48,141 nt of DNA from Escherichia virus Lambda_4B5. Positions 737 to 26,645 of this stretch are shown here, piece by piece. The stretch is from sequence record LR595863.1; one strand, written 5' to 3'. How positions within the stretch are numbered: position 1 is the stretch's first letter; every line of letters starts with the position of its first letter. The notes under the pieces are model-generated. The model was not told the DNA's origin. It saw nothing but the letters and a program-made list of their open reading frames with translations, and did no database searches. A program made the position numbers and the translations under genes.

Positions 737-4417
<3,681 letters not shown>

Positions 4418-4437
<20 letters not shown>

Positions 4438-5737
4438 TCTCCCGCATATTGCCAGTATGGCCTTTAATGAGCCGCTGATGCTTGAACCCGCCTATGCGCG
4501 GGTTTTCTTTTGTGCGCTTGCAGGCCAGCTTGGGATCAGCCGCCTGACGGATGCGGTATCCGGCGACAGCCTGACTGCCGGAGAGGCACCCGCGGCGCTG
4601 GCGTTATCCGTTGATGATGACGGACCACGACAGGCCCGCAGTTATCAGGTCATGAACGGCATCGCCGTGCTGCCGGTGTCCGGCACGCTGGTCAGTCGGA
4701 CGCGAGCGCTGCAGCCGTATTCGGGGATGACCGGTTACAACGGCATTATCGCCCGTCTGCAACAGGCTGCCAGCGACCCGATGGTGGACGGCATTCTGCT
4801 CGATATGGATACGCCAGGCGGGATGGTGGCAGGGGCATTTGACTGCGCTGACATCATCGCCCGTGTGCGTGACATAAAGCCGGTATGGGCGCTGGCCAAC
4901 GACATGAACTGCAGTGCAGGTCAGTTGCTTGCCAGTGCCGCCTCCCGGCGTCTGGTCACGCAGACCGCCCGGACAGGCTCCATCGGCGTCATGATGGCTC
5001 ACAGTAATTACGGTGCTGCGCTGGAGAAACAGGGTGTGGAAATCACGCTGATTTACAGCGGCAGCCATAAGGTGGATGGCAACCCCTACAGCCATCTTCC
5101 GGATGACGTCCGGGAGACACTGCAGTCCCGGATGGACGCAACCCGCCGGATGTTTGCACAGAAGGTGTCGGCATATACCGGCCTGTCCGTGCAGGCTGTG
5201 CTGGATACCGAGGCTGCAGTGTACAGCGGTCAGGAGGCCATTGATGCCGGACTGGCTGATGAACTTGTTAACAGTACCGATGCGATCACCGTCATGCGTG
5301 ATGCACTGGATGCACGTAAATCCCGTCTCTCAGGAGGGCGAATGACCAAAGAGACTCAATCAACAACTGTTTCAGCCACTGCTTCGCAGGCTGACGTTAC
5401 TGAGGTGGTGCAAGCGACGGAGGGCGAGAACGCCAGCGCGGCGCAGCCGGACGTGAACGCGCAGATCACCGCAGCGGTTGCGGCAGAAAACAGTCGCATT
5501 ATGGGGATCCTCAACTGTGAGGAGGCTCACGGACGCGAAGAACAGGCACGCGTGCTGGCCGAAACCCCCGGTATGACCGTGGAAACGGCCCGCCGCATTC
5601 TGGCAGCTGCACCACAGAGTGCACAGGCGCGCAGTGACACTGCGCTGGATCGTCTGATGCAGGGGGCACCGGCACCGCTGGCTGCAGGTAACCCGGCATC
5701 TGATGCCGTTAACGATTTGCTGAACACACCAGTGTAA
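4418..5737 (+). CDS. C: Head maturation protease / scaffold
   Basis: GTG at 4418 preceded by GAGGAGGAG; product begins (M)TAELRNLPHIASMAFNEPLMLEPAYARVFF as in lambda gpC; the longer tool ORF from 4304 is an upstream extension. Confidence 0.9.
5132..5737 (+). CDS. nu3: Scaffolding protein, in-frame internal start within C
   Basis: Internal ATG at 5132 giving MDATRRMFAQKVSAYTGLSVQ, matching lambda Nu3 nested in C. Confidence 0.8.
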   Translation: MDATRRMFAQKVSAYTGLSVQAVLDTEAAVYSGQEAIDAGLADELVNSTDAITVMRDALDARKSRLSGGRMTKETQSTTVSATASQADVTEVVQATEGENASAAQPDVNAQITAAVAAENSRIMGILNCEEAHGREEQARVLAETPGMTVETARRILAAAPQSAQARSDTALDRLMQGAPAPLAAGNPASDAVNDLLNTPV

Positions 5738-5746
5738 GGGATGTTT

Positions 5747-6079
5747 ATGACGAGCAAAGAAACCTTTACCCATTACCAGCCGCTGGGCAACAGTGACCCG
5801 GCACATACGGCAACCGCGCCCGGCGGATTGAGTGCGAAAGCGCCTGCAATGACCCCGCTGATGCTGGACACCTCCACCCGTAAGCTGGTTGTGTGGGATG
5901 GCACCACCGACGGTGCTGCCGTTGGCATTCTGGCGGTTGCTGCTGACCAGACCAGCACCACGCTGACGTTCTACAAGTCCGGCACGTTCCGTTATGAGGA
6001 TGTGCTCTGGCCGGAGGCTGCCAGCGACGAGACGAAAAAACGGACCGCGTTTGCCGGAACGGCAATCAGCATCGTTTAA
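5747..6079 (+). CDS. D: Head decoration protein
   Basis: [12 protein letters not shown]... ending [10 protein letters not shown], matches lambda gpD; start taken at the internal Met of the tool ORF. Confidence 0.93.
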
Positions 6080-6134
6080 CCTTACCCTTCATCACTAAAG
6101 GCCGCCTGTGCGGCTTTTTTTACGGGATTTTTTT

Positions 6135-7160
6135 ATGTCGATGTACACAACCGCCCAGCTGCTGGCGGCAAATGAGAAGAAATTTAAGTTTGATCCGCTG
6201 TTTCTGCGTCTCTTTTTCCGTGAGAGCTATCCCTTCACCACGGAGAAAGTCTATCTCTCACAAATTCCGGGACTGGTAAACATGGCGCTGTACGTTTCGC
6301 CGATTGTTTCCGGTGAGGTTATCCGCTCCCGTGGCGGCTCCACCTCTGAATTTACACCGGGATATGTCAAGCCGAAGCATGAGGTGAATCCGCAGATGAC
6401 CCTGCGTCGCCTGCCGGATGAAGATCCACAGAATCTGGCGGACCCGGCTTACCGCCGCCGTCGCATCATTCTGCAGAACATGCGAGACGAAGAGCTGGCC
6501 ATTGCTCAGGTCGAAGAGATGCAGGCCGTTTCTGCCGTGCTTAAGGGCAAATATACCATGACCGGTGAAGCCTTCGATCCGGTTGAAGTGGATATGGGCC
6601 GCAGTGTGGCGAACAACATCACGCAGTCCGGCGGTACGGAGTGGAGCAAGCGTGACAAGTCCACGTATGACCCGACCGACGATATCGAAGCCTACGCGCT
6701 GAACGCCAGCGGTGTGGTGAATATCATCGTGTTTGATCCGAAAGGCTGGGCGCTGTTCCGTTCCTTCAAAGCCGTCAAGGAGAAGCTGGATACCCGTCGC
6801 GGCTCTCATTCCGAGCTGGAGACAGCGGTAAAAGATCTGGGCGAAGCGGTGTCCTATAAGGGGATGTATGGCGATACGGCGATCGTCGTGTATTCCGGAC
6901 AGTACGTGGAAAACGACGTCAAAAAGAACTTCCTGCCGGACAACACGATGGTGCTGGGGAACACTCAGGCACGCGGTCTGCGCACCTATGGCTGCATTCA
7001 GGATGCGGACGCACAGCGCGAAGGTATTAACGCCTCTGCCCGCTACCCGAAAAACTGGGTGACCACCGGCGATCCGGCGCGTGAGTTCACCATGATTCAG
7101 TCAGCACCGCTGATGCTGCTGGCTGACCCTGATGCGTTCGTGTCCGTACAACTGGCGTAA
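6135..7160 (+). CDS. E: Major capsid protein
   Basis: MSMYTTAQLLAANE... matches lambda gpE (341 aa); start at internal Met of the tool ORF. Confidence 0.95.
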   Translation: MSMYTTAQLLAANEKKFKFDPLFLRLFFRESYPFTTEKVYLSQIPGLVNMALYVSPIVSGEVIRSRGGSTSEFTPGYVKPKHEVNPQMTLRRLPDEDPQNLADPAYRRRRIILQNMRDEELAIAQVEEMQAVSAVLKGKYTMTGEAFDPVEVDMGRSVANNITQSGGTEWSKRDKSTYDPTDDIEAYALNASGVVNIIVFDPKGWALFRSFKAVKEKLDTRRGSHSELETAVKDLGEAVSYKGMYGDTAIVVYSGQYVENDVKKNFLPDNTMVLGNTQARGLRTYGCIQDADAQREGINASARYPKNWVTTGDPAREFTMIQSAPLMLLADPDAFVSVQLA

Positions 7161-7201
7161 TCATGGCCCTTCGGGGCCATTTTCTCTCTGTGGAGGAGTC
7201 C

Positions 7202-7597
7202 ATGACGAAAGATGAACTGATTGCCCGTCTTCAGGTGCTGGGTGAGCAACTGAACCGTGATGTCAGCCTGACGGGGACGAAAGAAGAACTGGCACTCCGT
7301 GTGGCAGAGCTGGAAGAGGAGCTTGATGACACGGATGACGCTGCTGGTCAGGACACATCTGTCAGCCCGGAAAATGCGCTGACCGGACATGAAAATGAGG
7401 TGGTATCAGCGCAGCCGGATACCGTGACTGATACGGCTGATCTGGTCACGGTTGTGGCACTGGTGACGCTGCATACTGATGCACTTCACGCCACGCGGGA
7501 TGAGGCTGTGGCATTTGTGCTGCCGGGAACGGCGTTCCGTGTCTCTGCCGGTGTGGCAGCTGAAATGACAGAGCGCGGCCTGGCCAGAATGCAATAA
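7202..7597 (+). CDS. FI: DNA packaging protein FI
   Basis: MTKDELIARL... ending MTERGLARMQ, matches lambda FI; internal start. Confidence 0.88.
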   Translation: MTKDELIARLQVLGEQLNRDVSLTGTKEELALRVAELEEELDDTDDAAGQDTSVSPENALTGHENEVVSAQPDTVTDTADLVTVVALVTLHTDALHATRDEAVAFVLPGTAFRVSAGVAAEMTERGLARMQ

Positions 7598-10546: not shown

Positions 10547-13118
10547 ACCGGTAGGCGATCTGGTCGTTGATTTAAGTCTGGATGCGGCCAGATTTGACGA
10601 GCAGATGGCCAGAGTCAGGCGTCATTTTTCCGGTACGGAAAGTGATGCGAAAAAAACAGCGGCAGTCGTTGAACAGTCGCTGAGCCGACAGGCGCTGGCT
10701 GCACAGAAAGCGGGGATTTCCGTCGGGCAGTATAAAGCTGCCATGCGTATGCTGCCTGCGCAGTTCACTGACGTGGCCACGCAGCTTGCAGGCGGGCAAA
10801 GTCCGTGGCTGATCCTGCTGCAACAGGGTGGTCAGGTGAAGGACTCCTTCGGCGGGATGATCCCCATGTTCAGGGGGCTTGCCGGTGCGATCACCCTGCC
10901 GATGGTCGGGGCCACCTCGCTGGCGGTGGCGACCGGTGCGCTGGCGTATGCCTGGTATCAGGGCAACTCAACCCTGTCCGATTTCAATAAAACGCTGGTC
11001 CTTTCCGGTAATCAGGCGGGACTGACGGCAGATCGTATGCTGGCCCTGTCCAGATCCGGGCAGGCGGCAGGGCTGACGTTTAACCAGACCAGCGAGTCAC
11101 TGACGGCGCTGGTGAATGCCGGTGTGCGTGGTGGTGAGCAGTTTGAGGCAATCAGCCAGAGTGTGGCGCGTTTCTCCTCTGCATCCGGCGTGGAGGTGGA
11201 CAAGGTCGCTGAAGCCTTCGGGAAGCTGACCACTGACCCGACGTCTGGGTTGACGGCGATGGCGCGCCAGTTCCATAACGTGACGGCGGAACAGATTGCG
11301 TATGTTGCTCAGTTGCAGCGTTCCGGCGATGGGGCCGGGGCATTGCAGGCGGCGAACGAGGCCGCAACGAAAGGGTTTGATGACCAGACCCGTAAACTGA
11401 AAGATAACATGGGTACGCTGGAGACCTGGGCAGACAAGACTGCACAGGCATTCAAATCCATGTGGGATGCGGTGCTGGATATTGGTCGCCCGGACTCCTC
11501 TGCAGATATGCTCGCCAAAGCTGAAAAGGCTTTTGATGAAGCGGATAAAAAATGGCAGTGGTATCAGAGCCGAAGCCACCGGCGCGGTAAAACGTCAGCA
11601 TTTCTTGCCAATCTCCGGGGGGCATGGGAGAAGAGAGAGAATGCGCGACTTGGGCTTTCAGCCGCCACGTTGCAGGCAGATCTTGAAAAGGCCAGTGAGA
11701 TGGCAGCAAAAGATCGGGCCGAGTCTGAGGCATCACGGCTGAAATATACCGAAGAGGCGCAGAAGGCTTACGAACGCCTGCAGACACCGCTGGAGAAATA
11801 TACCGCCCGCCAGGAGGAACTGAATAAGGCACTGAAAGACGGAAAAATCCTGCAGGCAGATTACAACACGCTGATGGCGGCGGCGAAAAAGGACTATGAA
11901 GCGACGCTGAAAAAGCCGAAGCAGTCCGGCGTGAAAGTGTCTGCGGGCGATCGTCAGGAAGACAGTGCTCATGCTGCCCTGCTGACGCTTCAGGCAGAAC
12001 TCCGGACACTGGAGAAGCATGCCGGAGCGAATGAGAAAATCAGCCAGCAGCGCCGGGATTTGTGGAAGGCGGAAAGTCAGTTCGCGGTACTGGAGGAGGC
12101 GGCGCAACGTCGCCAGCTGTCCGCACAGGAGAAATCCCTGCTGGCGCATAAAGATGAGACGCTGGAGTACAAACGCCAGCTGGCTGCACTTGGCGATAAG
12201 GTCACGTATCAGGAGCACCTGAACGCGCTGGCGCAGCAGGCGGATAAATTCGCACAGCAGCAACGGGCAAAACGGGCAGCCATTGAGGCGAAAAACCGGG
12301 GGCTGACTGACCGGCAGGCAGCGCGGGACGCCACGGAACAGCGCCTGAAGGAACAGTATGGCGATAATCCGCTGGCGCTGAATAGCGTCATGTCAGAGCA
12401 GAAAAAGACCTGGGCGGCTGAAGACCAGCTTCGCGGGAGCTGGATGGCAGGCCTCAGGTCAGGCTGGAGTGAGTGGGAAGAGAGCGCCACGGACAGTATG
12501 TCGCAGGTTAAAAGTGCAGCCACGCAGACCTTTGATGGTATTGCACAGAATATGGCGGCGATGCTGACCGGCAGTGAACAGAACTGGCGCAGCTTCACCC
12601 GTTCCGTGCTGTCCATGATGACAGAAATTCTGCTTAAGCAGGCAATGGTGGGGATTGTCGGGAGTATCGGCAGCGCCATTGGAGGTGCTACCGGTGGCGG
12701 CTCATCAGCGTCAGGTGGTGCAGCCATTCAGGCCGCTGCGGCGAAACTCCATTTTGCGACCGGAGGATTTACGGGAACCGGCGGCAAATATGAGCCAGCA
12801 GGGATTGTTCACCGTGGTGAATTTGTCTTCACGAAGGAGGCAACCAGCCGGATTGGCGTGGGGAATCTTTACCGGCTGATGCGCGGCTATGCCACCGGCG
12901 GTTATGTCGGTACACCGGGCAGCATGGCGGACAGTCGGTCGCAGGCGTCCGGGAAGTTTGAGCAGAATAACCATGTGGTGATTAACAACGACGGCACGAA
13001 CGGTCAGATAGGGCCACAGGCGCTGAAGGCGGTTTATGACGTAGCCCGTAAGGCGGCAATGGATGTTGTGACCGGGCAGATGCGTGATGGTGGTCTGTTC
13101 TCCGGAGGTGGACGATGA
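10539..13118 (+). CDS. H: Tail tape measure protein
   Basis: 859-aa ORF, coiled-coil-rich with a Gly-rich C-terminal region, lambda gpH position. Confidence 0.93.
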   Translation: MAEPVGDLVVDLSLDAARFDEQMARVRRHFSGTESDAKKTAAVVEQSLSRQALAAQKAGISVGQYKAAMRMLPAQFTDVATQLAGGQSPWLILLQQGGQVKDSFGGMIPMFRGLAGAITLPMVGATSLAVATGALAYAWYQGNSTLSDFNKTLVLSGNQAGLTADRMLALSRSGQAAGLTFNQTSESLTALVNAGVRGGEQFEAISQSVARFSSASGVEVDKVAEAFGKLTTDPTSGLTAMARQFHNVTAEQIAYVAQLQRSGDGAGALQAANEAATKGFDDQTRKLKDNMGTLETWADKTAQAFKSMWDAVLDIGRPDSSADMLAKAEKAFDEADKKWQWYQSRSHRRGKTSAFLANLRGAWEKRENARLGLSAATLQADLEKASEMAAKDRAESEASRLKYTEEAQKAYERLQTPLEKYTARQEELNKALKDGKILQADYNTLMAAAKKDYEATLKKPKQSGVKVSAGDRQEDSAHAALLTLQAELRTLEKHAGANEKISQQRRDLWKAESQFAVLEEAAQRRQLSAQEKSLLAHKDETLEYKRQLAALGDKVTYQEHLNALAQQADKFAQQQRAKRAAIEAKNRGLTDRQAARDATEQRLKEQYGDNPLALNSVMSEQKKTWAAEDQLRGSWMAGLRSGWSEWEESATDSMSQVKSAATQTFDGIAQNMAAMLTGSEQNWRSFTRSVLSMMTEILLKQAMVGIVGSIGSAIGGATGGGSSASGGAAIQAAAAKLHFATGGFTGTGGKYEPAGIVHRGEFVFTKEATSRIGVGNLYRLMRGYATGGYVGTPGSMADSRSQASGKFEQNNHVVINNDGTNGQIGPQALKAVYDVARKAAMDVVTGQMRDGGLFSGGGR

Positions 13119-13444
13119 AAACCTTCCGCTGGAAAGTGAAACCGGGTATGGATGTGGCTTCGACTCCTTCCGTCAGGGAGGTGCGCTTTGGTGATGGCTA
13201 TTCCCAGCGAGCGCCTGCCGGGCTGAATGCCAACCTGAAAACGTACAGCGTGACGATTTCTGTCCCCCGTTGGGAGGCCACGGCGCTGGAATCGTTTCTG
13301 GCAGAGCACGGAGGCTGGAAAGCCTTTCTGTGGACGCCGCCTTATGACTGGCGGCAGATAAAGGTGACCTGCGCAAAATGGACGTCGCGGGTCAGTATGC
13401 TGCGTGTTGAGTTCAGCGCAGAGTTTAAACAGGTGGTGAACTGA
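13115..13444 (+). CDS. M: Tail tip protein M
   Basis: 109-aa ORF in lambda M position. Confidence 0.9.
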   Translation: MKTFRWKVKPGMDVASTPSVREVRFGDGYSQRAPAGLNANLKTYSVTISVPRWEATALESFLAEHGGWKAFLWTPPYDWRQIKVTCAKWTSRVSMLRVEFSAEFKQVVN

Positions 13445-15520: not shown

Positions 15521-18500
15521 ATGGGTAAAGGCAGCAGTAAGGGGCATACCCCGCGCGAAGCGAAGGACAACCTGAAGTCCACGCAGCTGCTGAGTGTGAT
15601 CGATGCCATCAGCGAAGGGCCGGTTGAAGGTCCGGTGGATGGATTAAAAAGCGTGCTGCTGAACAGTACGCCGGTGCTGGACAGTGAGGGGAATACCAAT
15701 ATCTTCGGTGTCACGGTGGTGTTCCGGGCAGGTGAGCAGGAGCAGACTCCGCCGGAGGGGTTTGAATCCTCCGGCTCCGAGACGGTGCTGGGTACGGAAG
15801 TGAAATATGACATGCCGATCACCCGCACCATCACGTCGGCAAACATCGACCGTCTGCGCTTTACTTTCGGCGTGCAGGCACTGGTGGAAACTACCTCAAA
15901 GGGGGACAGGAATCCGTCGGAAGTCCGTCTGCTGGTTCAGATACAGCGTAATGGTGGCTGGGTGACGGAAAAAGACATCACCATTAAAGGCAAAACCACC
16001 TCGCAGTATCTGGCCTCGGTGGTGGTGGATAACCTGCCGCCGCGCCCGTTTAATATCCGGATGCGCAGGATGACGCCGGACAGCACCACAGACCAGCTGC
16101 AGAACAAAACGCTCTGGTCGTCATACACCGAAATCATCGATGTGAAACAGGGCTACCCGAACACGGCACTGGTCGGCGTGCAGGTGGACTCGGAACAGTT
16201 CGGCAGTCAGCAGGTGAGCCGTAATTATCATCTTCGCGGGCGCATTCTGCAGGTGCCGTCGAACTATAACCCGCAGACGCGGCAATACAGCGGTATCTGG
16301 GACGGAACGTTAAAACCGGCATACAGCAACAACATGGCCTGGTGTCTGTGGGATATGCTGACCCATCCGCGCTACGGCATGGGAAAACGTCTTGGTGCGG
16401 CGGATGTGGATAAATGGGCGCTGTATGTCATCGGCCAGTACTGCGACCAGTCGGTGCCGGACGGCTTTGGCGGCACGGAGCCGCGCATTACCTGTAATGC
16501 GTACCTGACCACACAGCGCAAGGCGTGGGATGTGCTCAGTGATTTCTGCTCGGCGATGCGCTGTATGCCGGTATGGAACGGGCAGACGCTGACGTTCGTG
16601 CAGGACCGACCATCAGATAAGGTGTGGACCTATAACCGCAGTAATGTGGTGATGCCGGATGATGGCGCGCCGTTCCGCTACAGCTTCAGCGCCCTGAAGG
16701 ACCGCCATAATGCCGTTGAGGTGAACTGGATTGACCCGGATAACGGCTGGGAGACGGCGACAGAGCTCGTGGAGGATACGCAGGCCATTGCCCGTTACGG
16801 TCGTAATGTCACGAAGATGGATGCCTTTGGCTGTACCAGTCGGGGGCAGGCACACCGCGCCGGGCTGTGGCTGATTAAAACGGAACTGCTGGAAACGCAG
16901 ACCGTGGATTTCAGCGTCGGCGCAGAAGGGCTTCGCCATGTACCGGGCGATGTTATTGAAATCTGTGATGATGACTATGCCGGTATCAGCACCGGTGGTC
17001 GTGTGCTGGCGGTGAACAGCCAGACCCGGACGCTGACGCTCGACCGTGAAATCACGCTGCCATCCTCCGGTACCACGCTGATAAGCCTGGTTGACGGAAG
17101 TGGCAATCCGGTCAGCGTGGAGGTTCAGTCCGTCACCGACGGCGTGAAGGTAAAAGTGAGCCGTGTTCCTGACGGTGTTGCTGAATACAGCGTATGGGGG
17201 CTGAAGCTGCCGACGCTGCGCCAGCGCCTGTTCCGCTGTGTGAGTATCCGGGAGAACGATGACGGTACGTATGCCATCACCGCCGTGCAGCATGTACCGG
17301 AAAAAGAAGCCATCGTGGATAACGGGGCGCACTTTGACGGCGACCAGAGCGGCACGGTGAATGGTGTCACGCCGCCAGCGGTGCAGCACCTGACCGCCGA
17401 AGTCACCACAGACAGCGGGGAATATCAGGTGCTGGCGCGATGGGACACGCCGAAGGTGGTGAAGGGCGTGAGCTTCCTGCTTCGCCTTACCGTGGCAGCG
17501 GACGACGGCAGTGAGCGGCTGGTCAGCATGGCCCGGACGACGGAAACCACATACCGCTTCAGGCAACTGGCGCTGGGGAACTACAGGCTGACAGTCCGGG
17601 CGGTAAATGCGTGGGGGCAGCAGGGCGATCCGGCATCGGTATCGTTCCGGATTGCCGCACCGGCAGCGCCGTCGCAGATTGAGCTGACACCGGGGTATTT
17701 TCAGATAACCGCCACGCCCCATCTTGCCGTTTATGATCCGACGGTACAGTTTGAGTTCTGGTTCTCGGAAAAGCGGATTGCGGATATCAGGCAGGTTGAA
17801 ACCACAGCCCGCTATCTTGGCACGGCGCTGTACTGGATAGCTGCCAGTATCAATATCAAACCGGGCCATGATTATTATTTTTACATCCGCAGTGTGAACA
17901 CCGTTGGCAAATCGGCATTTGTGGAGGCTGTTGGCCAGCCGAGTGATGATGCATCCGGCTATCTGGATTTTTTCAAAGGCGAGATAGGGAAAAGCCATCT
18001 GGCTCAGGAGCTGTGGACGCAGATTGATAACGGTCAGCTTGCGCCTGACCTGGCTGAAATCAGGACGTCCATTACGGATGTCAGCAATGAAATCACGCAG
18101 ACCGTCAATAAGAAACTGGAAGACCAGAGTGCGGCAATTCAGCAGATACAGAAGGTTCAGGTTGATACAAATAATAACCTGAACAGCATGTGGGCTGTGA
18201 AGCTGCAGCAGATGCAGGACGGACGCCTTTATATCGCGGGTATTGGTGCCGGTATTGAGAACACCCCTGACGGCATGCAGAGTCAGGTGCTGCTGGCGGC
18301 GGACAGGATTGCGATGATTAATCCTGCGAATGGCAATACAAAGCCGATGTTTGTTGGGCAGGGCGATCAGATATTCATGAACGAAGTGTTCCTGAAATAT
18401 CTGACGGCTCCCACCATTACCAGCGGTGGCAATCCCCCAACGTTTTCACTGACACCTGATGGTCGACTTTCTGCGAGAAATGCGGATATCAGCGGTAACG

Positions 18501-19003
18501 TGAATGCGAACTCCGGGACGCTCAATAATGTCACGATTAACCAGAACTGTCGGATTCTGGGAAAACTGTCAGCTAACCAGATTGAAGGTGATATTGTCAA
18601 AACGGTGGGAAAAGCCTTTCCGAGAAATGGCAGTTATGCCAGCGGTACAATAACGGTCACTGTGTACGATGACCAGGCTTTTGACCGTCAGATAGTCGTC
18701 CCCCCCGTTCTGTTTCGCGGTGGTAAGCATGAAAACTTCAACAGCAACAACCAACAGTCATACTGGTATTCAACCTGTAAGCTGCAGGTGCTGAAGAACG
18801 GACAGGAAATCTTTCAGCAACCCGCGACGGATGTCAGCAGGGTATTTTCATCAGTCATTGATATGCCTGCCGGACACGGCCATGTCACCCTGACTTTCAA
18901 TGTTTCTTCATATGGTGCAAATAACTGGACGCCAACGACCAGTATCAGCGACCTTCTTGTTGTCGTGATGAAGAAATCAACAGCCGGCATCAGTATCAGT
19001 TGA
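15521..19003 (+). CDS. J: Central tail fibre / host-specificity protein J
   Basis: 1160-aa ORF starting [34 protein letters not shown], matches lambda gpJ over most of its length; C-terminal receptor-binding portion diverges from what I remember. Confidence 0.93.
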
Positions 19004-19024
19004 ATTTTAAAACCCAAATTCGGG

Positions 19025-19038
19025 CACCAGAAATGGTG
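19025..19038. repeat. Target-site duplication, left copy (CACCAGAAATGGTG)
   Basis: Identical 14-nt string abuts both ends of the IS4 copy (also at 20465..20478). Confidence 0.8.
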
Positions 19039-20464
19039 TAATGCCAGTCAGTTAAGCAACTGACTGGCTCTTTTTCGGGGCTGTGGGGTATTTCCAGGGC
19101 CTCTCCTTTACCACTCTCGGGAAGGCCCTTTCCCTTCTTGTCGGTAATTTCACAAGTTGTCCCATACTTGCAAGATCGCGCATCAGCTCCGGTATACGTC
19201 CCGGTGAAGCGCCCTGCAATGTCATCAGCATTCTCATCACCATTCCGCATGATTCTGAGAAACTCAGTTGATTCGGCCAGTAACCTTTCAGATGTTCCGC
19301 CATTTTAATCATCTGATATCTCACCAGATTATAAGCCAGTAAGACACCCCACAGCTCTTGCTCCACAAGCTCCGGCTTTTTACTTCTCAGCGTCAGCCTG
19401 CTCCGTTGCATCGTCTGTTTTATCTCCCTGTATCCCAGTTCGATTTCCCAGCGATGACTGTACAGATCCCCCATTTCTCCTCCGGGGAAGCGCATGGCGT
19501 CCGTCATCGACGTCAGCAGATGGCAGACTTTTCCTTTGCGCGTCACGGTCAGCAGGCGGGCAGTCACTTCATTTCCCAGTCCCGGCCACTTTTTTCGTGC
19601 CTGCGGGCTGGTTTTCAGCTTCACCAGATGATCGCCTTTACCCAGTTTTCTGATCTCTTCATATTGCGCTCCCTTTCTGAGAGGTATCATCCAGTGGCGG
19701 TGTTCTCCCGCCAGGCTCCAGGCATTTAACAGTCCCAGTGAGTAATAACCTTTATCCATTAACGTCAGAGTGTTATCGCCGGTTTGTTCTATAAGTTGCT
19801 CAGCAAGCTCATTTTCGCTGTTCTTCATCGTGCCGAAGGCTGCAGCCGTCAGCAGATGGCTGGTCAGTTCCATCTGGCAGACCATTTTGACCTGCGGGTA
19901 GAGCGCCGGGTTCCCGGCATGTGTCTGGCGGGGGAAGGCTGCATCGTTCTCTGGTGTATCCGGTGTGCGCCAGAACACACCATCGATGGCCAGCAGGGTC
20001 AGGCCGCACCAGTGCGGATGCGGCGTGGCGTTATGCCAGAGCTGCGCTGTTTTCGTGAACACGCGGCGGACAGCCTCACTTCCCAGGCGCTGGCGGGCCT
20101 GAATAACGGCACTGGGGGCAACGAAGGGGCGATTGCCCGGCAGCATGATGTCCAGGCGATTCACAATCTGGTGAAGAGGTTCTTTACGCTCAAGCGCCAT
20201 GCCAACAATACACCAGACCATCATTTCGAGGGGAAGACGGCGCTTGCGTAGCGTTACAGTACCTGATTCGGCAAGGCAACGAGAGATGAGTTCGGGGTCG
20301 AGGTAATCCCCCAGAGAAGTCAGTGGGTTACGCAGAGAATCGTAACGGGATACCAGATCAAGAGCCTGTCCAATGTGCATAAAAAAATCCGGAAACAAGT
20401 GAGCGTTTCCGGATTCTTACACAGCCACTGGATCGGTCAACTGATCCTTAACTGATCGGCATTA
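19039..20464 (-). mobile_element. IS4: IS4 insertion sequence (1426 bp)
   Basis: Imperfect 18-bp terminal inverted repeats (TAATGCCAGTCAGTTAAG at left; complement of CTTAACTGATCGGCATTA at right), single transposase ORF, flanking direct repeat. Confidence 0.9.
19052..20380 (-). CDS. insG: IS4 transposase (DDE family)
   Basis: Translation [40 protein letters not shown]... matches remembered E. coli IS4 transposase; start set at the internal Met of the tool ORF. Confidence 0.88.
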
Positions 20465-20478
20465 CACCAGAAATGGTG
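20465..20478. repeat. Target-site duplication, right copy (CACCAGAAATGGTG)
   Basis: See left copy; followed by GCC TTTTTT completing the disrupted terminator hairpin. Confidence 0.8.
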
Positions 20479-20501
20479 CCTTTTTTATTTGTGGAGTGAA
20501 T

Positions 20502-22523
20502 ATGGCAGTACAGATTTCAGGTGTGCTGAAAGACGGTGCAGGAAAACCGATACAGAACTGCACCATTCAGCTCAAAGCAAAACGTAACAGCACCACAGTT
20601 GTGGTGAACACGGTGGCCTCAGAAAATCCGGATGAAGCCGGACGTTACAGCATGGATGTTGAGTATGGCCAGTACAGCGTCGCCCTGCTGGTTGAAGGTT
20701 TTCCGCCTTCACATGCCGGGACCATCACCGTGTATGAGGATTCTAAGCCGGGGACATTGAATGATTTTCTGGGCGCTGCAACAGAAGATGATGTTTGTCC
20801 GGAGGCACTGTATCGTTTTGAAAAGATGGTGGAAGAGGCGGCACGCAACGCTGAAGCCGCCTCTCAGAGCGCAGCGGCAGCAAAGAAATCAGAAACAGCA
20901 GCGGCATCGTCCAGGAACGCGGCGAAAACATCAGAGACGAATGCAGGTAACAGCGCGAAAGCGGCAGCTTCTTCAAAAACAGCCGCACAAAACGCAGCAA
21001 CAGCGGCAGAACGTTCAGAGACAAATGCCCGTGCGTCAGAAGAAGCCTCCGCAGACAGTGAAGAGGCTTCCCGCCGTAATGCAGAGTCAGCCGCTGAAAA
21101 TGCCGGAGTCGCCACCACAAAAGCGCGGGAGGCCGCAGCAGACGCAACAAAGGCCGGGCAGAAAAAGGATGAGGCTCTGTCGGCAGCGACACGAGCTGAA
21201 AAGGCGGCAGACCGCGCAGAAGCCGCAGCGGAAGTGACTGCAGAGCCCTGTGCGAATATAGTGCCGCCGCTGCCTGATGTGTGGATACCGTTTAACGATT
21301 CACTGGATATGATTACGGGTTTTTCGCCATCTTATAAAAAGATAGTTATTGGTGACGATGAAATAACAATGCCAGGCGACAAGATTGTTAAGTTTAAACG
21401 TGCTTCAACAGCAACGTATATTAATAAGTCCGGCCAACTCAAGCTTGCTGAAGTTGACGAACCGCGATTTGAGCGCGATGGCTTATTGATTGAAGGACAG
21501 AGGACAAATTATCTGAGGAACTCAAATAAACCAGACTCATGGACTGTTCATTCCGCACTGAATAAAACATTTGGCACTGATAAACAGGGGTTCAATTATG
21601 CCACGGTGACACCCACGGAAAGTATAGTGGGAACAACAGGTGGCTATACTGTGCATGGTGTGGTTGCAGCAGACAGATTCCCGCTGGCAAGTGGTGAATG
21701 TTTCACTTTTTCGTGCCGGGTTAAAGGCGCTAAAGCACGATGCAGGTTAAGAGTTTCAGTTATTATTGGTGGAACAGATACCTTCTCTGCTGACTCTTAT
21801 CTTGATCTGGATACCCGGATCGCAACAGTAAGCGGTAATACATCCCTTATAACAGCCAAAGCTGAACAACAGGGCGAGTGGACCTACTATGAGGCCACTT
21901 ATACAGCTAATACGGACATTGATACCGTTAACTGTGCTTTTTATATGACAAATAAAATAAGTAATGAGCCATTCTATGATGACTCAACATTAACCATGAC
22001 GACGCCGCAAATTGAACTGGGCAATACGGCATCGTCATTTATTGTAACTACAATGCCAACAACACGCGCAAGTGATGTAGTTACTATCCCATCGCAGAAT
22101 AACCTGTCAACACGGCCTTTTACGGTATTGTGCGAAGTAAGCAGGAACTGGAGTACACCGCCCAATGTTGCGCCAAGGATATTTGATGTTGGAGGGCACA
22201 GTATTGATGATAATTATTTATCGCTGGGGTTTGTTGCAACAGGAAAGATAAGCGCCAACGTAGGAATGGTTCAGCCACAAATTGCCTCAGATGGAGAAAG
22301 GTTCATTGTGGGTGTGAGAGCTAAATCTGATTTATCAGTAAATGCAATATGCAATGGTAATTATACAACAAACCTTAATGGTAAAATATTTGGAGTTACA
22401 GCAACATCGTACCGGTTTGGTGGGCAGACCGCAGCAGGAACGCGTCATTTGTTTGGACACATCAGAAATTTCAGAGTCTGGTTTAAAGAATTAAATGACA
22501 GGCAAATCAAGGAGGCAGTATGA
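20502..22523 (+). CDS. stf: Side tail fibre protein
   Basis: N-terminus MAVQISGVLKDGAGKPIQNCTIQLKAKRNSTTVVVNTV matches lambda Stf; Ala/Ser-rich repeat shaft; distinct C-terminal domain. Confidence 0.88.
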   Translation: MAVQISGVLKDGAGKPIQNCTIQLKAKRNSTTVVVNTVASENPDEAGRYSMDVEYGQYSVALLVEGFPPSHAGTITVYEDSKPGTLNDFLGAATEDDVCPEALYRFEKMVEEAARNAEAASQSAAAAKKSETAAASSRNAAKTSETNAGNSAKAAASSKTAAQNAATAAERSETNARASEEASADSEEASRRNAESAAENAGVATTKAREAAADATKAGQKKDEALSAATRAEKAADRAEAAAEVTAEPCANIVPPLPDVWIPFNDSLDMITGFSPSYKKIVIGDDEITMPGDKIVKFKRASTATYINKSGQLKLAEVDEPRFERDGLLIEGQRTNYLRNSNKPDSWTVHSALNKTFGTDKQGFNYATVTPTESIVGTTGGYTVHGVVAADRFPLASGECFTFSCRVKGAKARCRLRVSVIIGGTDTFSADSYLDLDTRIATVSGNTSLITAKAEQQGEWTYYEATYTANTDIDTVNCAFYMTNKISNEPFYDDSTLTMTTPQIELGNTASSFIVTTMPTTRASDVVTIPSQNNLSTRPFTVLCEVSRNWSTPPNVAPRIFDVGGHSIDDNYLSLGFVATGKISANVGMVQPQIASDGERFIVGVRAKSDLSVNAICNGNYTTNLNGKIFGVTATSYRFGGQTAAGTRHLFGHIRNFRVWFKELNDRQIKEAV

Positions 22524-22798
22524 AAGATTTAACTTTGAAATTTCCTGGTAACAGAGAGTTTAAATCCTTCCTGTCATCTCTTGACTGGGAGGAGGATGAA
22601 GACCTCCAGAATAAACTGTTAGTCGATGAAATTGGTTTCACCTACACAGAAACAGGGGTAACAGAAGAGGGAGAACCTGTCTGTGTCCGGAATGACGGTT
22701 ATTTTGTCAACATTCGCATTCTTGATGACTTGTTTGATGTTTCTGTATTCTCTGATTATGTCGTGGAGCTGGAAACACCGCTTCGGGAATGGAGCTGA
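22520..22798 (+). CDS. Hypothetical acidic protein coupled to stf (possible fibre chaperone or accessory protein)
   Basis: 92-aa ORF whose ATG overlaps the stf stop (ATGA); no resemblance to lambda Tfa that I can see. Confidence 0.55.
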   Translation: MKDLTLKFPGNREFKSFLSSLDWEEDEDLQNKLLVDEIGFTYTETGVTEEGEPVCVRNDGYFVNIRILDDLFDVSVFSDYVVELETPLREWS

Positions 22799-22810: not shown

Positions 22811-23104
22811 ATGGATATAAGCCCCTTACTTCATGCACTTTGTGCTGTGGCTGCGCAGATACTGGTTGGTCTTTTTACCGGAAACTGGGCTTACGGAGCG
22901 ATAGCCGGTTGTACGTTCTTCATTGCGCGTGAACATACCCAGGCAGAATATCGCTGGATTGAAATGTTCGGGCATGGCAAGCGAATGAATATGCCGTGGT
23001 GGGGCGGTTTTGATCCGCGAGCTTGGGATGTGGCAAGCCTGATGGATTTTGCTGTGCCGGTGGTGGCGTGTCTGCTGGTCTGGCTGTTGGTTAATCGTGG
23101 GTGA
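22811..23104 (+). CDS. Hypothetical small membrane protein
   Basis: 97-aa ORF with GGAAA RBS-like sequence upstream and two hydrophobic segments (N-terminal and C-terminal). Confidence 0.55.
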   Translation: MDISPLLHALCAVAAQILVGLFTGNWAYGAIAGCTFFIAREHTQAEYRWIEMFGHGKRMNMPWWGGFDPRAWDVASLMDFAVPVVACLLVWLLVNRG

Positions 23105-23195: not shown

Positions 23196-24053
23196 CTAAT
23201 TGGGTGATAACAGATCCTGTGTATGGGAGTTTCCCTTTTTGCGTGCGTTGATGCTGGTAACGGCAAACGTCATGATGAACAAAACCGCGAATAAGACGAC
23301 AATCGTCGGAGCTGGTGCGCTGTCGATAAAAAAGGACAACCAGACACCAGTCATTGACACTATTACCGATATGCCAGTCGCCAGTAGGAGCGCAATATGA
23401 AAGCGTTGTGTCAGGAGTACCGCAATGGCGCCAGGCGCAATGAGCAGAGAAATGGAGAGAATGATACCTACCGCTTTCAGCGTCGCCACAATGGTCAGAG
23501 AGACCATGCACAGCAGCCCATAATGCAGCCATCTCGTATGCAAACCGCTTACCTGCGCCTGTTGATAATCAAAGCTGAACAGCAAAAAATCCCGCCATTT
23601 TACGCTAATAACAAGTGTAACCAGCCCGGCAATAATCATCGTCTGGATTATATCGCCGATGGTTATCCCGAGCATGTCGCCGAAAAGAATATGGTCAAGA
23701 TGTACGTCTGGTTTGACTGCAATATACAAGATCAGACCTGCGGCAAACATGCCAGAAAAAACAATCCCCATCACTGTATCTTGCTTGATTCGGCTGTTGT
23801 CTTTCAGGTATCCCGTCGCCACCGCGCAGAATACTCCGGCGACGAATGCCCCTGTAGCCAAAGGTAACCCCAGAATCCAGGCAAGCACGATGCCAGGAAA
23901 AACCGCATGACTCATCGCGTCACCCATCAGTGCCCAACCTTTCAGGACCAGAAAGACCGACAGCAGCGCACAGGGTATGGAAACTACCAGTGAAATCAGC
24001 AGTGCGTGACTCATAAAGGTGAACTGCAGTGGCTCCAGTAATAATGCCATCAT
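23196..24053 (-). CDS. sitD: Mn/Fe ABC transporter permease
   Basis: 285-aa polytopic membrane protein, last gene of a four-gene metal ABC operon; 4-bp overlap with upstream permease. Confidence 0.85.
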   Translation of the reverse strand: MMALLLEPLQFTFMSHALLISLVVSIPCALLSVFLVLKGWALMGDAMSHAVFPGIVLAWILGLPLATGAFVAGVFCAVATGYLKDNSRIKQDTVMGIVFSGMFAAGLILYIAVKPDVHLDHILFGDMLGITIGDIIQTMIIAGLVTLVISVKWRDFLLFSFDYQQAQVSGLHTRWLHYGLLCMVSLTIVATLKAVGIILSISLLIAPGAIAVLLTQRFHIALLLATGISVIVSMTGVWLSFFIDSAPAPTIVVLFAVLFIMTFAVTSINARKKGNSHTQDLLSPN

Positions 24054-24907
24054 GAGCGATCCTCCAGCGCCTTATGCGCACGCCGACGATTTGCCAAAAG
24101 CCCATGGGTGGGCGCAAAGACAAATGCTAAAAGAAACAGCAGTGTCTGCGCCACCACGATGATTCCACCTGTCGCGCCGTCCAGAAAGTAACTGACCCAC
24201 GCGCCGAGGAAACTGGTTACACTGCCAATAGTTACAGCAATCATGAGCAGGCGGGGAAAACGATCGGTTAACAACCATGCTGTTGCACCGGGAGTCACCA
24301 CCAGACAGATCACCAGAAAGGCACCAACCGTTTGCAGCGCCGCAACGGTCGAAACCGACAGCAGGGTGAAGAAGAGGAGTTTTAATCTGCCCGGATGCAA
24401 TCCAATAGCACGGGCGTGATTCTCGTCGAAAAAGGTCACCATAAGATCTTTCCATTTGAAAAAAAGCACGATGATCGAGAGAATGCCAATGATAGTGAGT
24501 TGCAGGATATCCGCCGGATCGATTGCCAGAATATTGCCCAGGACGATGGTCTGAATGTTCACAGATGTCGGGTTCAATGACACCATAAACAGCCCCAGGC
24601 CAAAAAAGGACGAGAAGATCAGACCGATGATGGCATCTTCTTTTAAGCGGGTGCGTTGGTTAAGAAACAGCATGCTGCCCGCAGCCAGTCCGCCGGAAAA
24701 GAAGGCTCCCAGAGAAAACGGAAGCCCCAGCATATATGCCCCCGCAACACCCGGGACAATAGAGTGCGACAACGCATCGCCAATCAGCGACCAGCCTTTT
24801 AGCATCAGATAGCATGACAGGAAAGCGCAGAGACCGCCGACCATCGCCGAGACCCACATCGCATTGAGCATATATTCATAGCTGAAGGGTTCCAGTAGCA
24901 CGTTCAT
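24050..24907 (-). CDS. sitC: Mn/Fe ABC transporter permease
   Basis: 285-aa polytopic membrane protein of the same family, overlapping neighbours by 4 bp. Confidence 0.85.
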
Positions 24908-25731
24908 CTTTCTTCCCTCTGCACCGCTGACGGTCGATGAGCCACAAAAGGGCGTTCATCGTCAGTAATAATGCTTTCTTCCGAGCCGTTAAGTGTGACA
25001 TGGCGCAGTACGCCGCTAAAAGCCAGCTCTAGGTTCTCGGCTGTAAAAGTGGTGTCTGTCGGCCCGCTTGCCAGGACGGTGCCTTTGACCATGACCGTAT
25101 AATCGCAAAATGTCGTGACGGATCCGAGATTGTGTGTTGAGACAAGCATCGTTTTGCCTTCCGCGCGTAACTCCCTCAACAGGCTGATGATTTTGGCTTC
25201 GGTTTTCACATCAACGCCAGTAAAAGGTTCATCCAGCAGGATCACATCACCCTGCTGTGCAATCGCTCTCGCCAGAAAGACGCGTTTCTTTTGTCCACCG
25301 GAAAGCTCGCCGATTTGTCGATGGCGAAAATTCACCATATCGACACGTTCCAGCGCATCGGTGACAATTTGACGATCCCTCTTTTTGGCGATACGCAACA
25401 TACCCATATGCCCATAGCGGCCCATCATCACCACATCTTCCACCAGTACAGGAAATGACCAGTCAACATCTTCTGACTGAGGGACGTAGGCAACCAGGTT
25501 TTTCTGTAACGCCTGTCGCGTGGGAATACCCAGAACAGATATCTTTCCGCTGGTCAGACGCACAAATCCCATAATCGCTTTAAACAACGTCGATTTTCCG
25601 GAACCGTTTACCCCAACCAGAGCGGCAATAGATCCACTTGGTACTGTGAAGGATGCATCGCGCAGTGCTGTGTGCCCGTTACGCCAGGTGACAGTAACAT
25701 CATTAACGACAATGCCTGCAGATTGCATCAT
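24904..25731 (-). CDS. sitB: Mn/Fe ABC transporter ATP-binding protein
   Basis: Walker [13 protein letters not shown] signature LSGGQKKR, Walker B ILLDEP. Confidence 0.9.
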
Positions 25732-26645
25732 TATTTCTCCCTTTTCCCAGCTTTAATTCCCTGTACCAGCGTACTGGTAGTAACCTTAAGAAGGTCGATA
25801 TACGTCGGTACCGGGCCGTTTTCTGTGCTCAGGGAATCGACATAGAGCACACCGCCGTAGTGTGCGCCGGTTTCACGCGCAACCTGACGCGCTGGTTTAT
25901 CGGAAATCGTACTCTCGCTAAAGACTGCCGGGATATGATTTTTCTTAACTATATCAACAACCTTACGTACCTGCTGCGGTGTTCCTTGTTGATCGGCATT
26001 AATCGGCCACAGATAAAGCTCTTTTAGCCCCAAATCGCGTGCGAGATAAGAAAAAGCCCCTTCACTGGTGACCATCCATCGCTGATTCTCAGGGAGTTCC
26101 GTAATCTGCTTACGCAGGGGGGCAAGGGTTTGGGTAATCTTGGCTTTATAAGTATCGGCATTGCGTTGGTAGGTTTGTGCATTTGCCGGATCGTATTTTA
26201 TCAACGCATCACGAATATTATCGACGTAAATCAGAGCATTATCTGGCGACATCCATGCATGGGGGTTAGGTTTGCCCTCATAGGGTCCTTCGGTGATCCC
26301 TACAGGCGTCACACCCGAAGAGACAATTACTTCTGGAACCCCATTGAGATGCTGGTAAAAGCGTTGGAACCACAATTCCAGATTCATACCATTGGCGAGA
26401 ATCAGTTGTGCCCCCTGCGCACGTTTAATATCGCCAGGGGTAGGCTGATACTCATGAATTTCTGCACCAGGCTTGGTTATGGATGAGACTTCTGCAGCAT
26501 CTCCCGCCACGTTTTTGGCCATATCCGCGATGATGGTAAATGTTGTAATGACCTTGAATTTTTCAGTTGCACTTGCCTGAAATGCGATCGAGCAGGTGAG
26601 TGCGAGCCCCCCCAAGAGCATGGTTACTTTTTTTATCGAGTGCAT
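25731..26645 (-). CDS. sitA: Periplasmic metal-binding protein (cluster A-I solute-binding protein)
   Basis: 304-aa protein with N-terminal signal peptide, His/Glu metal-ligand pattern of SitA/YfeA/MntC-type binding proteins. Confidence 0.88.

Follow-up and report, generated by a model that had tools for sequence, protein, structure and literature searches.

Insertion of IS4 into the terminator-like hairpin between genes J and stf of a phage-21-like lambdoid genome

An intact IS4 interrupts the short spacer between the tail genes J and stf in the window, i.e. the whole stretch of 48,141 nucleotides of Escherichia virus Lambda_4B5 (LR595863.1) that was analysed, which is a complete phage-21-like (Jouyvirus) lambdoid genome beginning at cos. 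Our main reading, with a probability of roughly 0.7, is a composite of a simple insertion of IS4 into the J-stf hairpin, a placement driven by the target, and little or only partial polarity on stf. The insertion and its surroundings are made up of the following features.

15521..19003, plus strand: gene J (1160 aa) for the tail tip / host specificity protein, with seven gpJ Pfam domains
19004..19038, plus strand: left part of the original J-stf spacer, holding the hairpin's 5' arm and loop and the greater part of its 3' arm (stem from 19022)
19025..19038: left copy of the 14-bp target-site duplication, CACCAGAAATGGTG
19039..20464, minus strand: IS4, 1426 bp, 100% identity to E. coli IS4 copies
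19039-19056: IRR, the IS4 end distal to the transposase start (terminal repeats read in the sequence)
19052..20380, minus strand: IS4 transposase InsG, 442 aa from the ATG at 20380
20447-20464: IRL, the IS4 end proximal to the transposase start (terminal repeats read in the sequence)
20465..20478: right copy of the 14-bp target-site duplication, CACCAGAAATGGTG
20465..20501, plus strand: right part of the original spacer, with a truncated 5-bp hairpin, CC, a T6ATTT run and the stf ribosome-binding site (RBS)
20502..22523, plus strand: stf, side tail fibre, 673 aa, with PF08400 phage_tail_N (2.8e-67) at residues 1-131

IS4 occupies exactly 1426 bp (19039-20464) with the transposase gene on the minus strand, and its ends are 18-bp imperfect inverted repeats starting TAATGCC (TAATGCCAGTCAGTTAAG and TAATGCCGATCAGTTAAG, 16/18 matching). 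Its coding content is a single ORF for a DDE transposase with an IS4 N-terminal domain, for which the profile search gave Nterm_IS4 PF13006 at 3.1e-33 and DDE_Tnp_1 PF01609 at 3e-31; the InsG gene is intact, without an internal stop, and its open frame reaches a TTG at 20398 (448 aa). The element shows 100% identity over 1426 bp to copies at four other loci in E. coli genomes, and 98.2-99.7% identity to additional IS4-annotated copies from E. coli and Shigella. The Y-(2)-R-(3)-E-(6)-K signature of the transposase C1 region is expected from this identity. It is a canonical intact IS4 (IS4 family, IS4 subgroup) with nothing unusual in the element itself, and the case is one of a known element acting in a known way. 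For annotation, the 1.4 kb between J and stf are host-derived IS4 rather than phage cargo.

IS4 is bracketed by two identical copies of the 14-bp direct repeat CACCAGAAATGGTG (19025-19038 and 20465-20478), and deletion of IS4 together with one repeat copy yields the spacer ...TTCGGGCACCAGAAATGGTGCCTTTTTTATTTGTGGAGTGAATATG. This restored J-stf spacer of 58 bp is letter-for-letter that of Lambda_2E9, and it is found in about ten other phage records with flanks of 100% identity. Compared at full length over 46.7 kb, the window without its IS and Lambda_2E9 are told apart by a single substitution and an indel of 1 bp. Chance is excluded because a 14-bp exact repeat brackets a complete IS and relatives have the empty site; that IS4 was inserted into the J-stf hairpin by a simple insertion is virtually certain. 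An earlier note on this DNA, made from its letters, had described a 1426-bp IS4 with a 14-bp duplication whose removal restores the spacer, and this description is exact to the base, the empty site being present in siblings. The comparison with related genomes lacking the IS, which it had proposed, gives the same answer, as about ten siblings share the spacer and the hairpin in unoccupied form. Its distance of 24 bp to the stf start codon is correct for the end of the right repeat copy; measured from where IS4 itself stops, it is 38 bp.

An assembly chimera, in which for example host IS4 reads were joined into the phage contig, would also explain why the siblings lack the insertion, and IS elements are a frequent cause of misassembly. 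However, the element is complete and carries a perfect 14-bp duplication of a sequence that is single-copy in the siblings, positions 18901-20600 with both junctions were found exactly in 4/4 fetched closed E. coli chromosomes, and the left junction is 100% identical in 9/9 carrier genomes. The genome length of 48,141 bp, near the 48.5 kb of lambda, also falls inside the lambda packaging range. An artefact is hardly conceivable in view of these observations.

At the empty site the hairpin consists of an 8-bp stem (GGGCACCA/UGGUGCCU, with a basal G.U and 5 G-C pairs) and a GAAA tetraloop, immediately followed by a U6AU3 run. The 58-bp spacer folds at -18.3 kcal/mol (z -3.2), and a scan of the first 20 kb of the sibling genome gave the J-stf hairpin as the second-listed terminator-like site. 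The terminator-like hairpin of the earlier note therefore stands as to its site, whereas folding replaces the 6-bp stem and 6-nt loop proposed there by the better 8-bp stem with the GAAA loop. In 8 relatives, 35/35 pair cells are paired, and the pair changes among them are a double change from A-U to G-C and a change from C-G to a U.G wobble. As proof of the hairpin, covariation was rejected for too low a diversity: the relatives supply only 5 distinct sequences, and 104/500 shuffles score as high. The record of phage 21 (OL657228.1, 19195-19222) annotates this element as a terminator, the annotation itself being a prediction; position, loop, U-run, downstream RBS and start codon are the same as at the restored site of the window, from whose stem it differs by one compensatory pair. 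Phage 21 and about 1,187 E. coli genomes have the element intact; in the window, IS4 splits it. Taken together, these sequence features suggest that the native hairpin acts as a terminator.

Of the 8 bp of the native stem, the insertion leaves 5 bp at either junction. The remnant at the left junction is a 5-bp CACCA/UGGUG hairpin with no U-run behind it. On the right, positions 20465-20478 were scored as a 5-pair terminator-like site in the terminator scan; the minimum-energy fold of the right spacer part omits this 5-bp hairpin (z -0.9). An Rfam search with E values up to 1 over 18500-21000 found no known RNA family in the spacer or the IS ends. J, which is also annotated in phage 21 and the siblings, directly precedes the spacer, and stf, with its ATG at 20502 and a GGAG ribosome-binding site at 20493-20496, is intact and identical to stf of the IS-less siblings, including Lambda_2E9. 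No lom is present between J and stf in the window, as the earlier note had pointed out, and phage 21 likewise has none there.

To describe the target of the element, we surveyed 31 unique IS4 or IS4-like insertions from Enterobacterales, of which only 13 are IS4 proper (at least 98% identity) and the others are relatives of 75-90% identity. The consensus left out 7 of 38 unique full-length IS4/IS4-like copies, all without a duplication; these seven resemble recombinants between copies (e.g. one in IAI39 with flanks near corA and near eno). At the surveyed sites a GC palindrome is framed by an A-tract and a T-tract. The half-site matrix has A in 42-51/62 half-sites at positions -8 to -4 and C in 55/62 at +1, and A and T tracts on both sides are found at 18/30 sites versus 0.4% of 2,999 control positions. 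The cuts are offset from the tracts by 3.1+/-0.6 and 2.9+/-0.7 bp. Classical IS4 sites are galT and the pheST attenuator, and the target of IS4 is pseudo-palindromic AAA-N20-TTT with duplications of 11-13 bp, roughly a helical turn. The surveyed duplications range from 11 to 14 bp (11 bp, n=5; 12 bp, n=15; 13 bp, n=8; 14 bp, n=3), so that the 14 bp of the window lie inside the surveyed range and one base past the classical one.

When the window site is withheld from the matrix, position 19025 with a 14-bp duplication ranks first among 186,636 combinations in the phage genome, and this rank is kept with IS4-proper sites alone or with IS4-like sites alone. The left half-site is weak (score 5.5 versus 16.4 for the right half), its A-tract lying 6 bp away from the cut where about 3 bp are usual. 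The ranking argues that IS4 sits in the J-stf hairpin because this is the best match in the genome to the sequence that the element prefers, and the placement was thus very probably driven by target preference. The target is the dyad-symmetric AAAAA-CGG/CCCC...GGGG/CCG-TTTTT (slashes at the cuts), the DNA form of a bidirectional intrinsic terminator; staggered cuts about 3 bp inside the A and T tracts give duplications of 11-14 bp, and one simple insertion at the top of the conserved terminator-like hairpin has duplicated 14 bp. A duplication length fixed strictly by the spacing of the A and T tracts was rejected: the correlation (r = 0.79 over 13 sites) is partly circular, as the spacing includes the duplication, and some sites of equal tract spacing have different duplication lengths.

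Structured targets are known for other elements, and IS231A selects a palindromic or bent target consensus. The REP-targeting IS1397, ISKpn1, ISPpu9 and ISRm22, together with IS231A, resemble IS4 here in using palindromic or bent targets; the IS4 target, an A-tract, GC palindrome and T-tract in the shape of a terminator, is unlike a REP element. One paper (PMC1525189) describes for such elements how the transposase selects a structured, usually intergenic palindrome, with few genes broken. De Palmenaer et al. discuss IS4 with regard to its marked target selectivity and variable duplication length, and our literature search on IS4 target choice (attenuator, galT and rho-independent terminator sites) found nothing useful. 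The core of terminator-palindrome homing by IS4 is already in the older IS literature. Homing to a terminator-shaped palindrome, combined with end terminators of its own, helps to predict where IS4 lands and to explain why it is tolerated.

Nine of 5,426 complete E. coli genomes have the occupied junction at 100% identity, within an icd-integrated prophage, and the empty junction is found at full length in 1,187 E. coli genomes. Among the carriers, six with records examined are from Switzerland, Australia, China and Ecuador or are wastewater isolates (two). Its presence in these nine prophages makes the allele a single established event rather than a fresh insertion peculiar to the window. It is nevertheless young as judged by sequence, with a perfect repeat, an IS 100% identical to other copies and undiverged flanks. 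The recent in-situ transposition of the earlier note holds in this sense of youth, but the allele is already fixed in the prophages of nine genomes.

Repeated strikes of IS4 at a hot-spot, with the window and the nine genomes as separate events, have to be considered, since the J-stf site is the top-scoring IS4 target in the genome, and IS4 copies are often 100% identical, so that identity of the IS cannot separate events. The allele also lies on two different head-gene backgrounds; this difference, however, is more simply explained by homologous exchange. Moreover, all occupied sites share the orientation and the 14-bp duplication, and a chimeric query found no IS4 in the opposite orientation at the same site in the 5,426 genomes, although the target is nearly symmetric. 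Four fetched prophages show zero differences over 9.6-28.5 kb including the IS, i.e. zero divergence over about 19 kb, and have the same chromosomal flank, and the occupied genomes are few compared with the empty ones. Recurrent insertion is thus improbable. These sequence comparisons instead indicate a single origin of the allele, whose present carriers would form one E. coli lineage. Apart from the insertion, the phage is identical to a widespread sitABCD-carrying Jouyvirus of infant-gut E. coli, and no mention of an IS is made in the paper on the sibling phages (PMC6969025).

The consequences for stf depend on the features inside IS4 and on the late antiterminator.

19043..19075, plus strand: inward terminator-like hairpin at the IRR end, 11-bp stem, AAGC loop, UCUUUUU (scan and fold)
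19119..19134, plus strand: second, weaker terminator-like hairpin in IS4, on the strand of the late transcript; fold not significant at -10.9 kcal/mol and z -1.5
20381..20416, minus strand: hairpin with U7 just upstream of the transposase ATG, -23.5 kcal/mol, z -6.1
20413..20440, minus strand: promoter-like site TTGACC-16-AAGAAT (scan), inward, toward the transposase and away from stf
42466..42843, plus strand: Q antiterminator homologue, 125 aa, PF06530 (2.2e-51), annotated Q in Lambda_2E9

The IRR hairpin (-18.7 kcal/mol, z -3.7) lies about 5 bp inside the J-proximal end of IS4 and is the first structure that transcripts from J encounter. Its sequence is kept in elements of 75-100% identity, which were retrieved with a 30-mer covering it, so that this conservation is partly by construction. 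The hairpin at 20381-20416 shows compensatory changes in IS4-like elements (CCGG/CCGG to CCAG/CTGG, and AAC/GTT to AAT/ATT), and it would, as judged from its fold, block read-through from the stf side into the transposase gene.

The earlier note had raised outward promoter activity of IS4, by which the element would supply or create a promoter driving stf and downstream ORFs, e.g. in the lysogen. Some IS elements do form hybrid promoters at their ends, and a TTAACT hexamer is located 11 bp inside the stf-proximal end. However, the scan of both strands over 18700-20800 found no sigma-70-like promoter toward stf on the plus strand, the sole promoter-like match being the inward transposase promoter on the minus strand. 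No acceptable -10 hexamer follows 16-18 bp past TTAACT (read by eye), and a truncated hairpin and a U-run remain between the IS end and stf. A promoter facing stf is therefore very improbable.

On the transcription that arrives from J, we slightly favour little or only partial polarity. The IRR hairpin and U-run of IS4 would stand in near the position of the native terminator, and unmodified RNA polymerase from J should still stop at nearly the same place because IS4 brings a strong inward hairpin with a U-run. Q-modified polymerase already must read through the native hairpin for stf to be expressed, and should cross IS4 too. As a native hairpin and U-run precede stf, late polymerase would have to be termination-resistant. 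The position of Q relative to the lysis and structural genes, upstream of them, follows the sibling annotation. According to a review (PMC12360218), Q is a polarity suppressor that narrows the RNA exit channel and blocks formation of the terminator hairpin. Read-through of IS4 by late polymerase is thereby suggested by the sequence, and late transcription probably reads through as far as stf, as the spacer is without any promoter-like site. Expression of stf would then be reduced at most partly, and IS4 itself would not drive it.

The opposite outcome is a polar knock-down, in which IS4 blocks late transcription, few or no side fibres are made, and the allele persists as stf is dispensable or its loss advantageous. 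Transcripts from J would meet a strong hairpin and U-run 5 bp inside IS4 (-18.7 kcal/mol), then an untranslated stretch of 1.4 kb that is antisense to the transposase gene, with no promoter-like site between IS4 and stf; with a native spacer of only 58 bp, stf has no other evident source of transcription. Against this, native expression of stf already needs read-through of an 8-bp hairpin and U-run, a Q homologue is encoded and Q suppresses polarity (PMC12360218), and the phage PhiR70_1 appears to tolerate an IS4 that precedes every one of its tail genes. With Q antitermination of late transcription and such a placement of IS4 in PhiR70_1, strong polarity is doubtful, and we consider the knock-down unlikely; the earlier note's "probably polar" finds no support in the sequence. 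The evidence from PhiR70_1 and Q argues against complete polarity and is compatible with a partial one, and the 1.4 kb of untranslated antisense RNA could give some Rho-dependent loss even with Q.

PhiR70_1 (PV340577.1) holds the only other IS4 among 50,697 phage records, with 99.2% identity to that of the window. As in the window, the element is located in a short intercistronic spacer of a lambdoid late operon, just upstream of the next RBS, and inside a GC-rich hairpin that has a tetraloop and a U-rich run behind it; the site differs in being E-FI rather than J-stf and in having a 12-bp duplication. The genes downstream of IS4, FI through J, are essential in PhiR70_1, whereas stf in the window is dispensable. 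The deposited record of PhiR70_1 is that of a complete phage genome and gives E. coli C as the host; other phages of the PhiR panel were used in plaque assays, in a paper that does not name PhiR70_1.

With little or partial polarity, the phage is probably harmed little by the insertion. By analogy, it should stay viable because side fibres are dispensable in lambda, and the viability of the IS4-bearing genome is assumed from its cos-to-cos layout and from its siblings. Hendrix and Duda are said to have described in 1992 that stf of lambda PaPa is frameshifted, and that laboratory lambda reportedly propagates without side tail fibres. In lambda PaPa stf itself is frameshifted, whereas in the window the stf coding sequence is intact and only the upstream spacer is interrupted; by the lambda PaPa case, an insertion lowering stf expression would be tolerable. 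The window and its IS-less siblings form a natural isogenic pair that differs in the IS4 ahead of stf; it could gauge the read-through of an IS by Q-modified polymerase and could show what side fibres contribute to adsorption, if anything, in phages of this group.

More tentatively, and with less than even odds, IS4 and its Enterobacterales relatives may be dedicated terminator seekers, with variable spacing of the half-sites (A-tract-CGG/CCCC) and conserved inward end terminators that would turn terminators into nearly neutral safe havens. If true, the stagger of 11-14 bp would track the size of the target hairpin, implying a flexible or cruciform-extruded target, and the end terminators of IS4 would replace the terminator that it destroys. 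If true and not already worked out for IS4, the window would be a clean natural example, in which the best site in 46.7 kb was struck to the base.

The IS4 transposase gene runs with late transcription in PhiR70_1 and antisense to it in the window, so that PhiR70_1 is no natural test of the 11-bp IRR hairpin, which transcripts meet first in the orientation of the window. The E-FI hairpin, occupied by IS4 in PhiR70_1, is also present in the window at 7162-7179, where it is unoccupied.

The arrangement around the insertion is as follows.

15521-19003, plus strand: J, an open reading frame (ORF).
19025-19038 and 20465-20478: 14-bp exact direct repeat CACCAGAAATGGTG, bracketing IS4.
19039-20464: IS4, 1426 bp.
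19052-20380, minus strand: IS4 transposase ORF, 442 aa from its ATG, with Nterm_IS4 and DDE_Tnp_1 domains; the sole ORF of the element.
20502, plus strand: ATG of stf, the next long same-strand ORF after J, with GGAG upstream.

The element terminates in TAATGCCAGTCAGTTAAG at one end and in the reverse complement of TAATGCCGATCAGTTAAG at the other, with the two ends agreeing at 16 of 18 positions. Several E. coli chromosomes carry IS4 copies that are 100% identical to it; the IS4 of Escherichia phage PhiR70_1 (PV340577.1) is 99.2% identical. On re-reading, the IS4 coordinates, lengths and sequence given in the earlier note are all right. Its structural reading, an insertion with target duplication into a hairpin spacer, is also right, the empty site being seen in sibling phages, and the placement of IS4 within the hairpin is confirmed as real.

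The IS4 flanks are 100% identical in about 10 deposited phage genomes (Lambda_2E9, 2G7a, ev087, ev245, ev058, ev110, ev066, 1H12 and, at 99.9%, ev203); the sibling records lack the 1440 bp present in the window. The Lambda_2E9 spacer, ...TGAATTTTAAAACCCAAATTCGGGCACCAGAAATGGTGCCTTTTTTATTTGTGGAGTGAATATG, is identical to that of the window without IS4 and one repeat copy, and the only genome-wide differences between the window reduced in this way (46,701 bp) and Lambda_2E9 are a single substitution and a 1-bp indel. At its start the window has a lambda-type cos end. The siblings are lambdoid phages carrying sitABCD, nearly identical to one another, that came from infant faeces (PMC6969025); GenBank assigns them to the genus Jouyvirus, as it does phage 21. 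The absence of lom from the J-stf interval, as had been claimed, is borne out and is shared with phage 21 (OL657228.1). In the region of window position 13347 (ORF 13115-13444), Lambda_2E9 has one additional C and a shorter annotated minor tail gene (13114-13410), and the full 330-nt ORF is found in the window and in RefSeq prophages; the Lambda_2E9 record may contain a homopolymer sequencing error here.

RNA of the intact J-stf spacer (59 nt) folds at -18.3 kcal/mol (z = -3.2), with an 8-bp stem (GGGCACCA/UGGUGCCU) and a GAAA tetraloop followed by U6AU3. Among the terminator-like sites of the sibling genome's first 20 kb this hairpin is listed second, and the homologous 28 bp are annotated as a terminator in the phage 21 record; a search of Rfam gave no matching family. 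Across eight relatives, the 58-bp spacer has six variable columns, three of them in the stem, and the stem variants all still pair (a double change from A-U to G-C, and C-G to U.G). These pair-keeping changes are suggestive but statistically indecisive, with only five distinct sequences and 104 of 500 shuffles equalling the real score. We infer that the native hairpin is active as a terminator.

Work on IS4 in the 1980s reportedly described a site at the pheST attenuator, an AAA-N20-TTT target and duplications of 11-13 bp. BLAST matches of the left junction run 18-23 bp past the IS end into unrelated loci, which hinted at alike IS4 targets, and insertions were therefore collected: six from E. 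coli genomes and 120 loci from species-representative genomes scanned with the IS4 end 30-mer. Among 38 unique full-length copies, 31 have a target duplication, of 11 bp (5), 12 bp (15), 13 bp (8) or 14 bp (3). IS4 proper (at least 98% identity) accounts for 13 of these sites, and the others belong to 75-90% identical relatives from Rahnella, Brenneria, Photorhabdus, Buttiauxella, Rosenbergiella and others. The rebuilt targets are closely alike, for example aaaaaaccg/CCATTATCCGG/cggttttttt and aaaaaagcac/CCTGAACATTCCGG/gtgcttttttt. The pooled half-site is AAAAA-C-G-G/C-C-C-C, with A in 42-51 of 62 at -8 to -4 and C in 55 of 62 at +1. A and T tracts flank both sides of 18 of 30 sites but only 0.4% of 2,999 random positions in the same loci, folding energy near the sites is below that of controls (P = 1e-5), and the cut lies 3.1±0.6 and 2.9±0.7 bp within the tracts. 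IS4 therefore favours DNA shaped like a bidirectional intrinsic terminator; this selectivity is in accord with the 1980s work and with De Palmenaer et al.

Elements 75-90% identical to IS4 with exactly the same terminal 30-mer, whose targets are likewise terminator-shaped, were seen in the species-representative scan in Rahnella, Brenneria, Kosakonia, Budvicia, Rosenbergiella, Photorhabdus, Buttiauxella and other genera; they are abundant in some genomes, with at least 15 loci in Rahnella sp. PCH160. No target duplication accompanies seven full-length copies of IS4 or IS4-like elements (in E. coli IAI39 and SCU-172 and at five further loci), and each of these has a left flank from one locus and a right flank from another, such as the corA side and the eno side in IAI39, indicating chromosomal rearrangements mediated by IS4.

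The window was left out of a weight matrix derived from the other sites, and this matrix was applied to every position of the IS-less phage genome in combination with duplications of 11-14 bp. The actual event (cut at 19025, 14 bp) ranks first among 186,636 combinations, and keeps this rank with IS4-proper sites alone or IS4-like sites alone. The sole other IS4 among 50,697 phage records, that of PhiR70_1, again lies inside an intercistronic hairpin with a U-rich tail: it splits ATGGCCC-TTCG-GGGCCAT in the E-FI spacer and has a 12-bp duplication. The same hairpin, followed by TTTCTCTCTG, is also present in the E-FI spacer of the window (7162-7179), where there is no IS4. The placement of IS4 is thus due to the known kind of IS4 target selectivity, which is quantified here. 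The spacer directly before the major capsid gene (about 6090-6130) contains aaaggCCGCCTGTGCGGcttttttt, another terminator-like hairpin between late-operon genes and the fourth-best predicted IS4 target genome-wide (predicted cut 6102).

After insertion, both junctions retain a 5-bp CACCA/UGGUG hairpin. That on the left lacks a U-run; that on the right still has CC-U6 and is unused in the best fold of the stretch. Two hairpins lie inside the element.

19043-19075, late-transcript (plus) strand: 11-bp stem followed by UCUUUUU; -18.7 kcal/mol, z -3.7.
20381-20416, minus strand: hairpin with U7, abutting the transposase ATG; -23.5 kcal/mol, z -6.1.

Both occur in IS4-like elements, the conservation of the first being partly by construction as it lies inside the retrieval 30-mer. 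The second shows compensatory base changes across these elements, which suggests selection for a block to read-through or for translational control of the transposase. This is a canonical IS4 acting in its known manner. The one thread meriting specialist attention is its possible terminator-seeking design, with a variable stagger and self-supplied end terminators, and even this may already be in the older literature.

Because IS4 brings the 19043-19075 hairpin and its U-run, unmodified polymerase from J should still terminate, at most about 35 bp from the original terminator. Scans of the empty and occupied states found no promoter-like site upstream of stf, so its expression must already rely on terminator-resistant late transcription; an outward promoter from IS4, as had been proposed, is unsupported. 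The window phage encodes a Q homologue. According to PMC12360218, which cites Forbes and Herskowitz 1982, Q proteins make the RNA exit channel narrower, keep terminator hairpins from forming and relieve polarity. PhiR70_1, for which the deposited record gives E. coli C as host, has its IS4 ahead of the genes FI through J, which argues that IS4 would be no barrier to Q-modified polymerase, at least in the PhiR70_1 orientation. Other members of the PhiR panel are used in plaque assays. In view of the Q homologue and PhiR70_1, complete polarity on stf is unlikely and a partial fall in its expression is possible; the functional speculation of the earlier note, probable polarity included, is weak. 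Laboratory lambda can do without side fibres, so reduced and unreduced stf expression would both be tolerated.

Of 5,426 complete E. coli genomes, 9 contain the left junction at 100% identity and none has IS4 in the opposite orientation at the J-stf site; 1,187 contain a full-length empty junction, with 468 records reaching at least 99% identity. Four carriers were fetched (Switzerland, Australia, China and Galapagos seawater), and all four have the prophage at icd with a common chromosomal flank and contain window 18901-20600, the entire IS4 with both junctions. In two carriers, 1-2 substitutions separate the prophage from the window across the 28.7 kb compared, plus 8 differences adjoining the attachment site. 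The prophages of the other two, L137 and L138, show 223 mismatches, all at about 1-9.6 kb and mainly in head genes, and zero from 9.6 to 28.5 kb. The simplest reading of these alignments would be a single insertion, later homologous exchange with a second head module, and clonal carriage. The transposition is young in sequence terms, as had been argued from the intact duplication, but the allele is shared with the nine E. coli genomes. Carrier genomes have 5-7 places matching the junction query, mainly other IS4 ends, and these other copies are likely donors. L137 and L138, compared with window 1000-7500, illustrate mosaic exchange, having a different head-gene module in otherwise identical prophages.

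Downstream of stf are the following features.

22520-22798 and 22811-23104: two small unannotated ORFs between stf and sitDCBA, with no Pfam match.
23196-26645, minus strand: sitDCBA iron/manganese ABC transporter operon, transcribed toward the tail genes.

The operon is a known moron in this phage group (PMC6969025). The intact 673-aa stf ORF (equivalent to window 20502-22523) is split by PGAP into two pseudogene fragments, named "prophage tail fiber N-terminal domain" and "phage head spike fiber domain", in three of the four prophages fetched; for L139 the latter part is called an intact CDS. Empty sites, such as that of Nissle 1917, also receive the N-terminal pseudogene call, and the split seems to be an annotation artefact of a chimeric fibre, with no real disruption.
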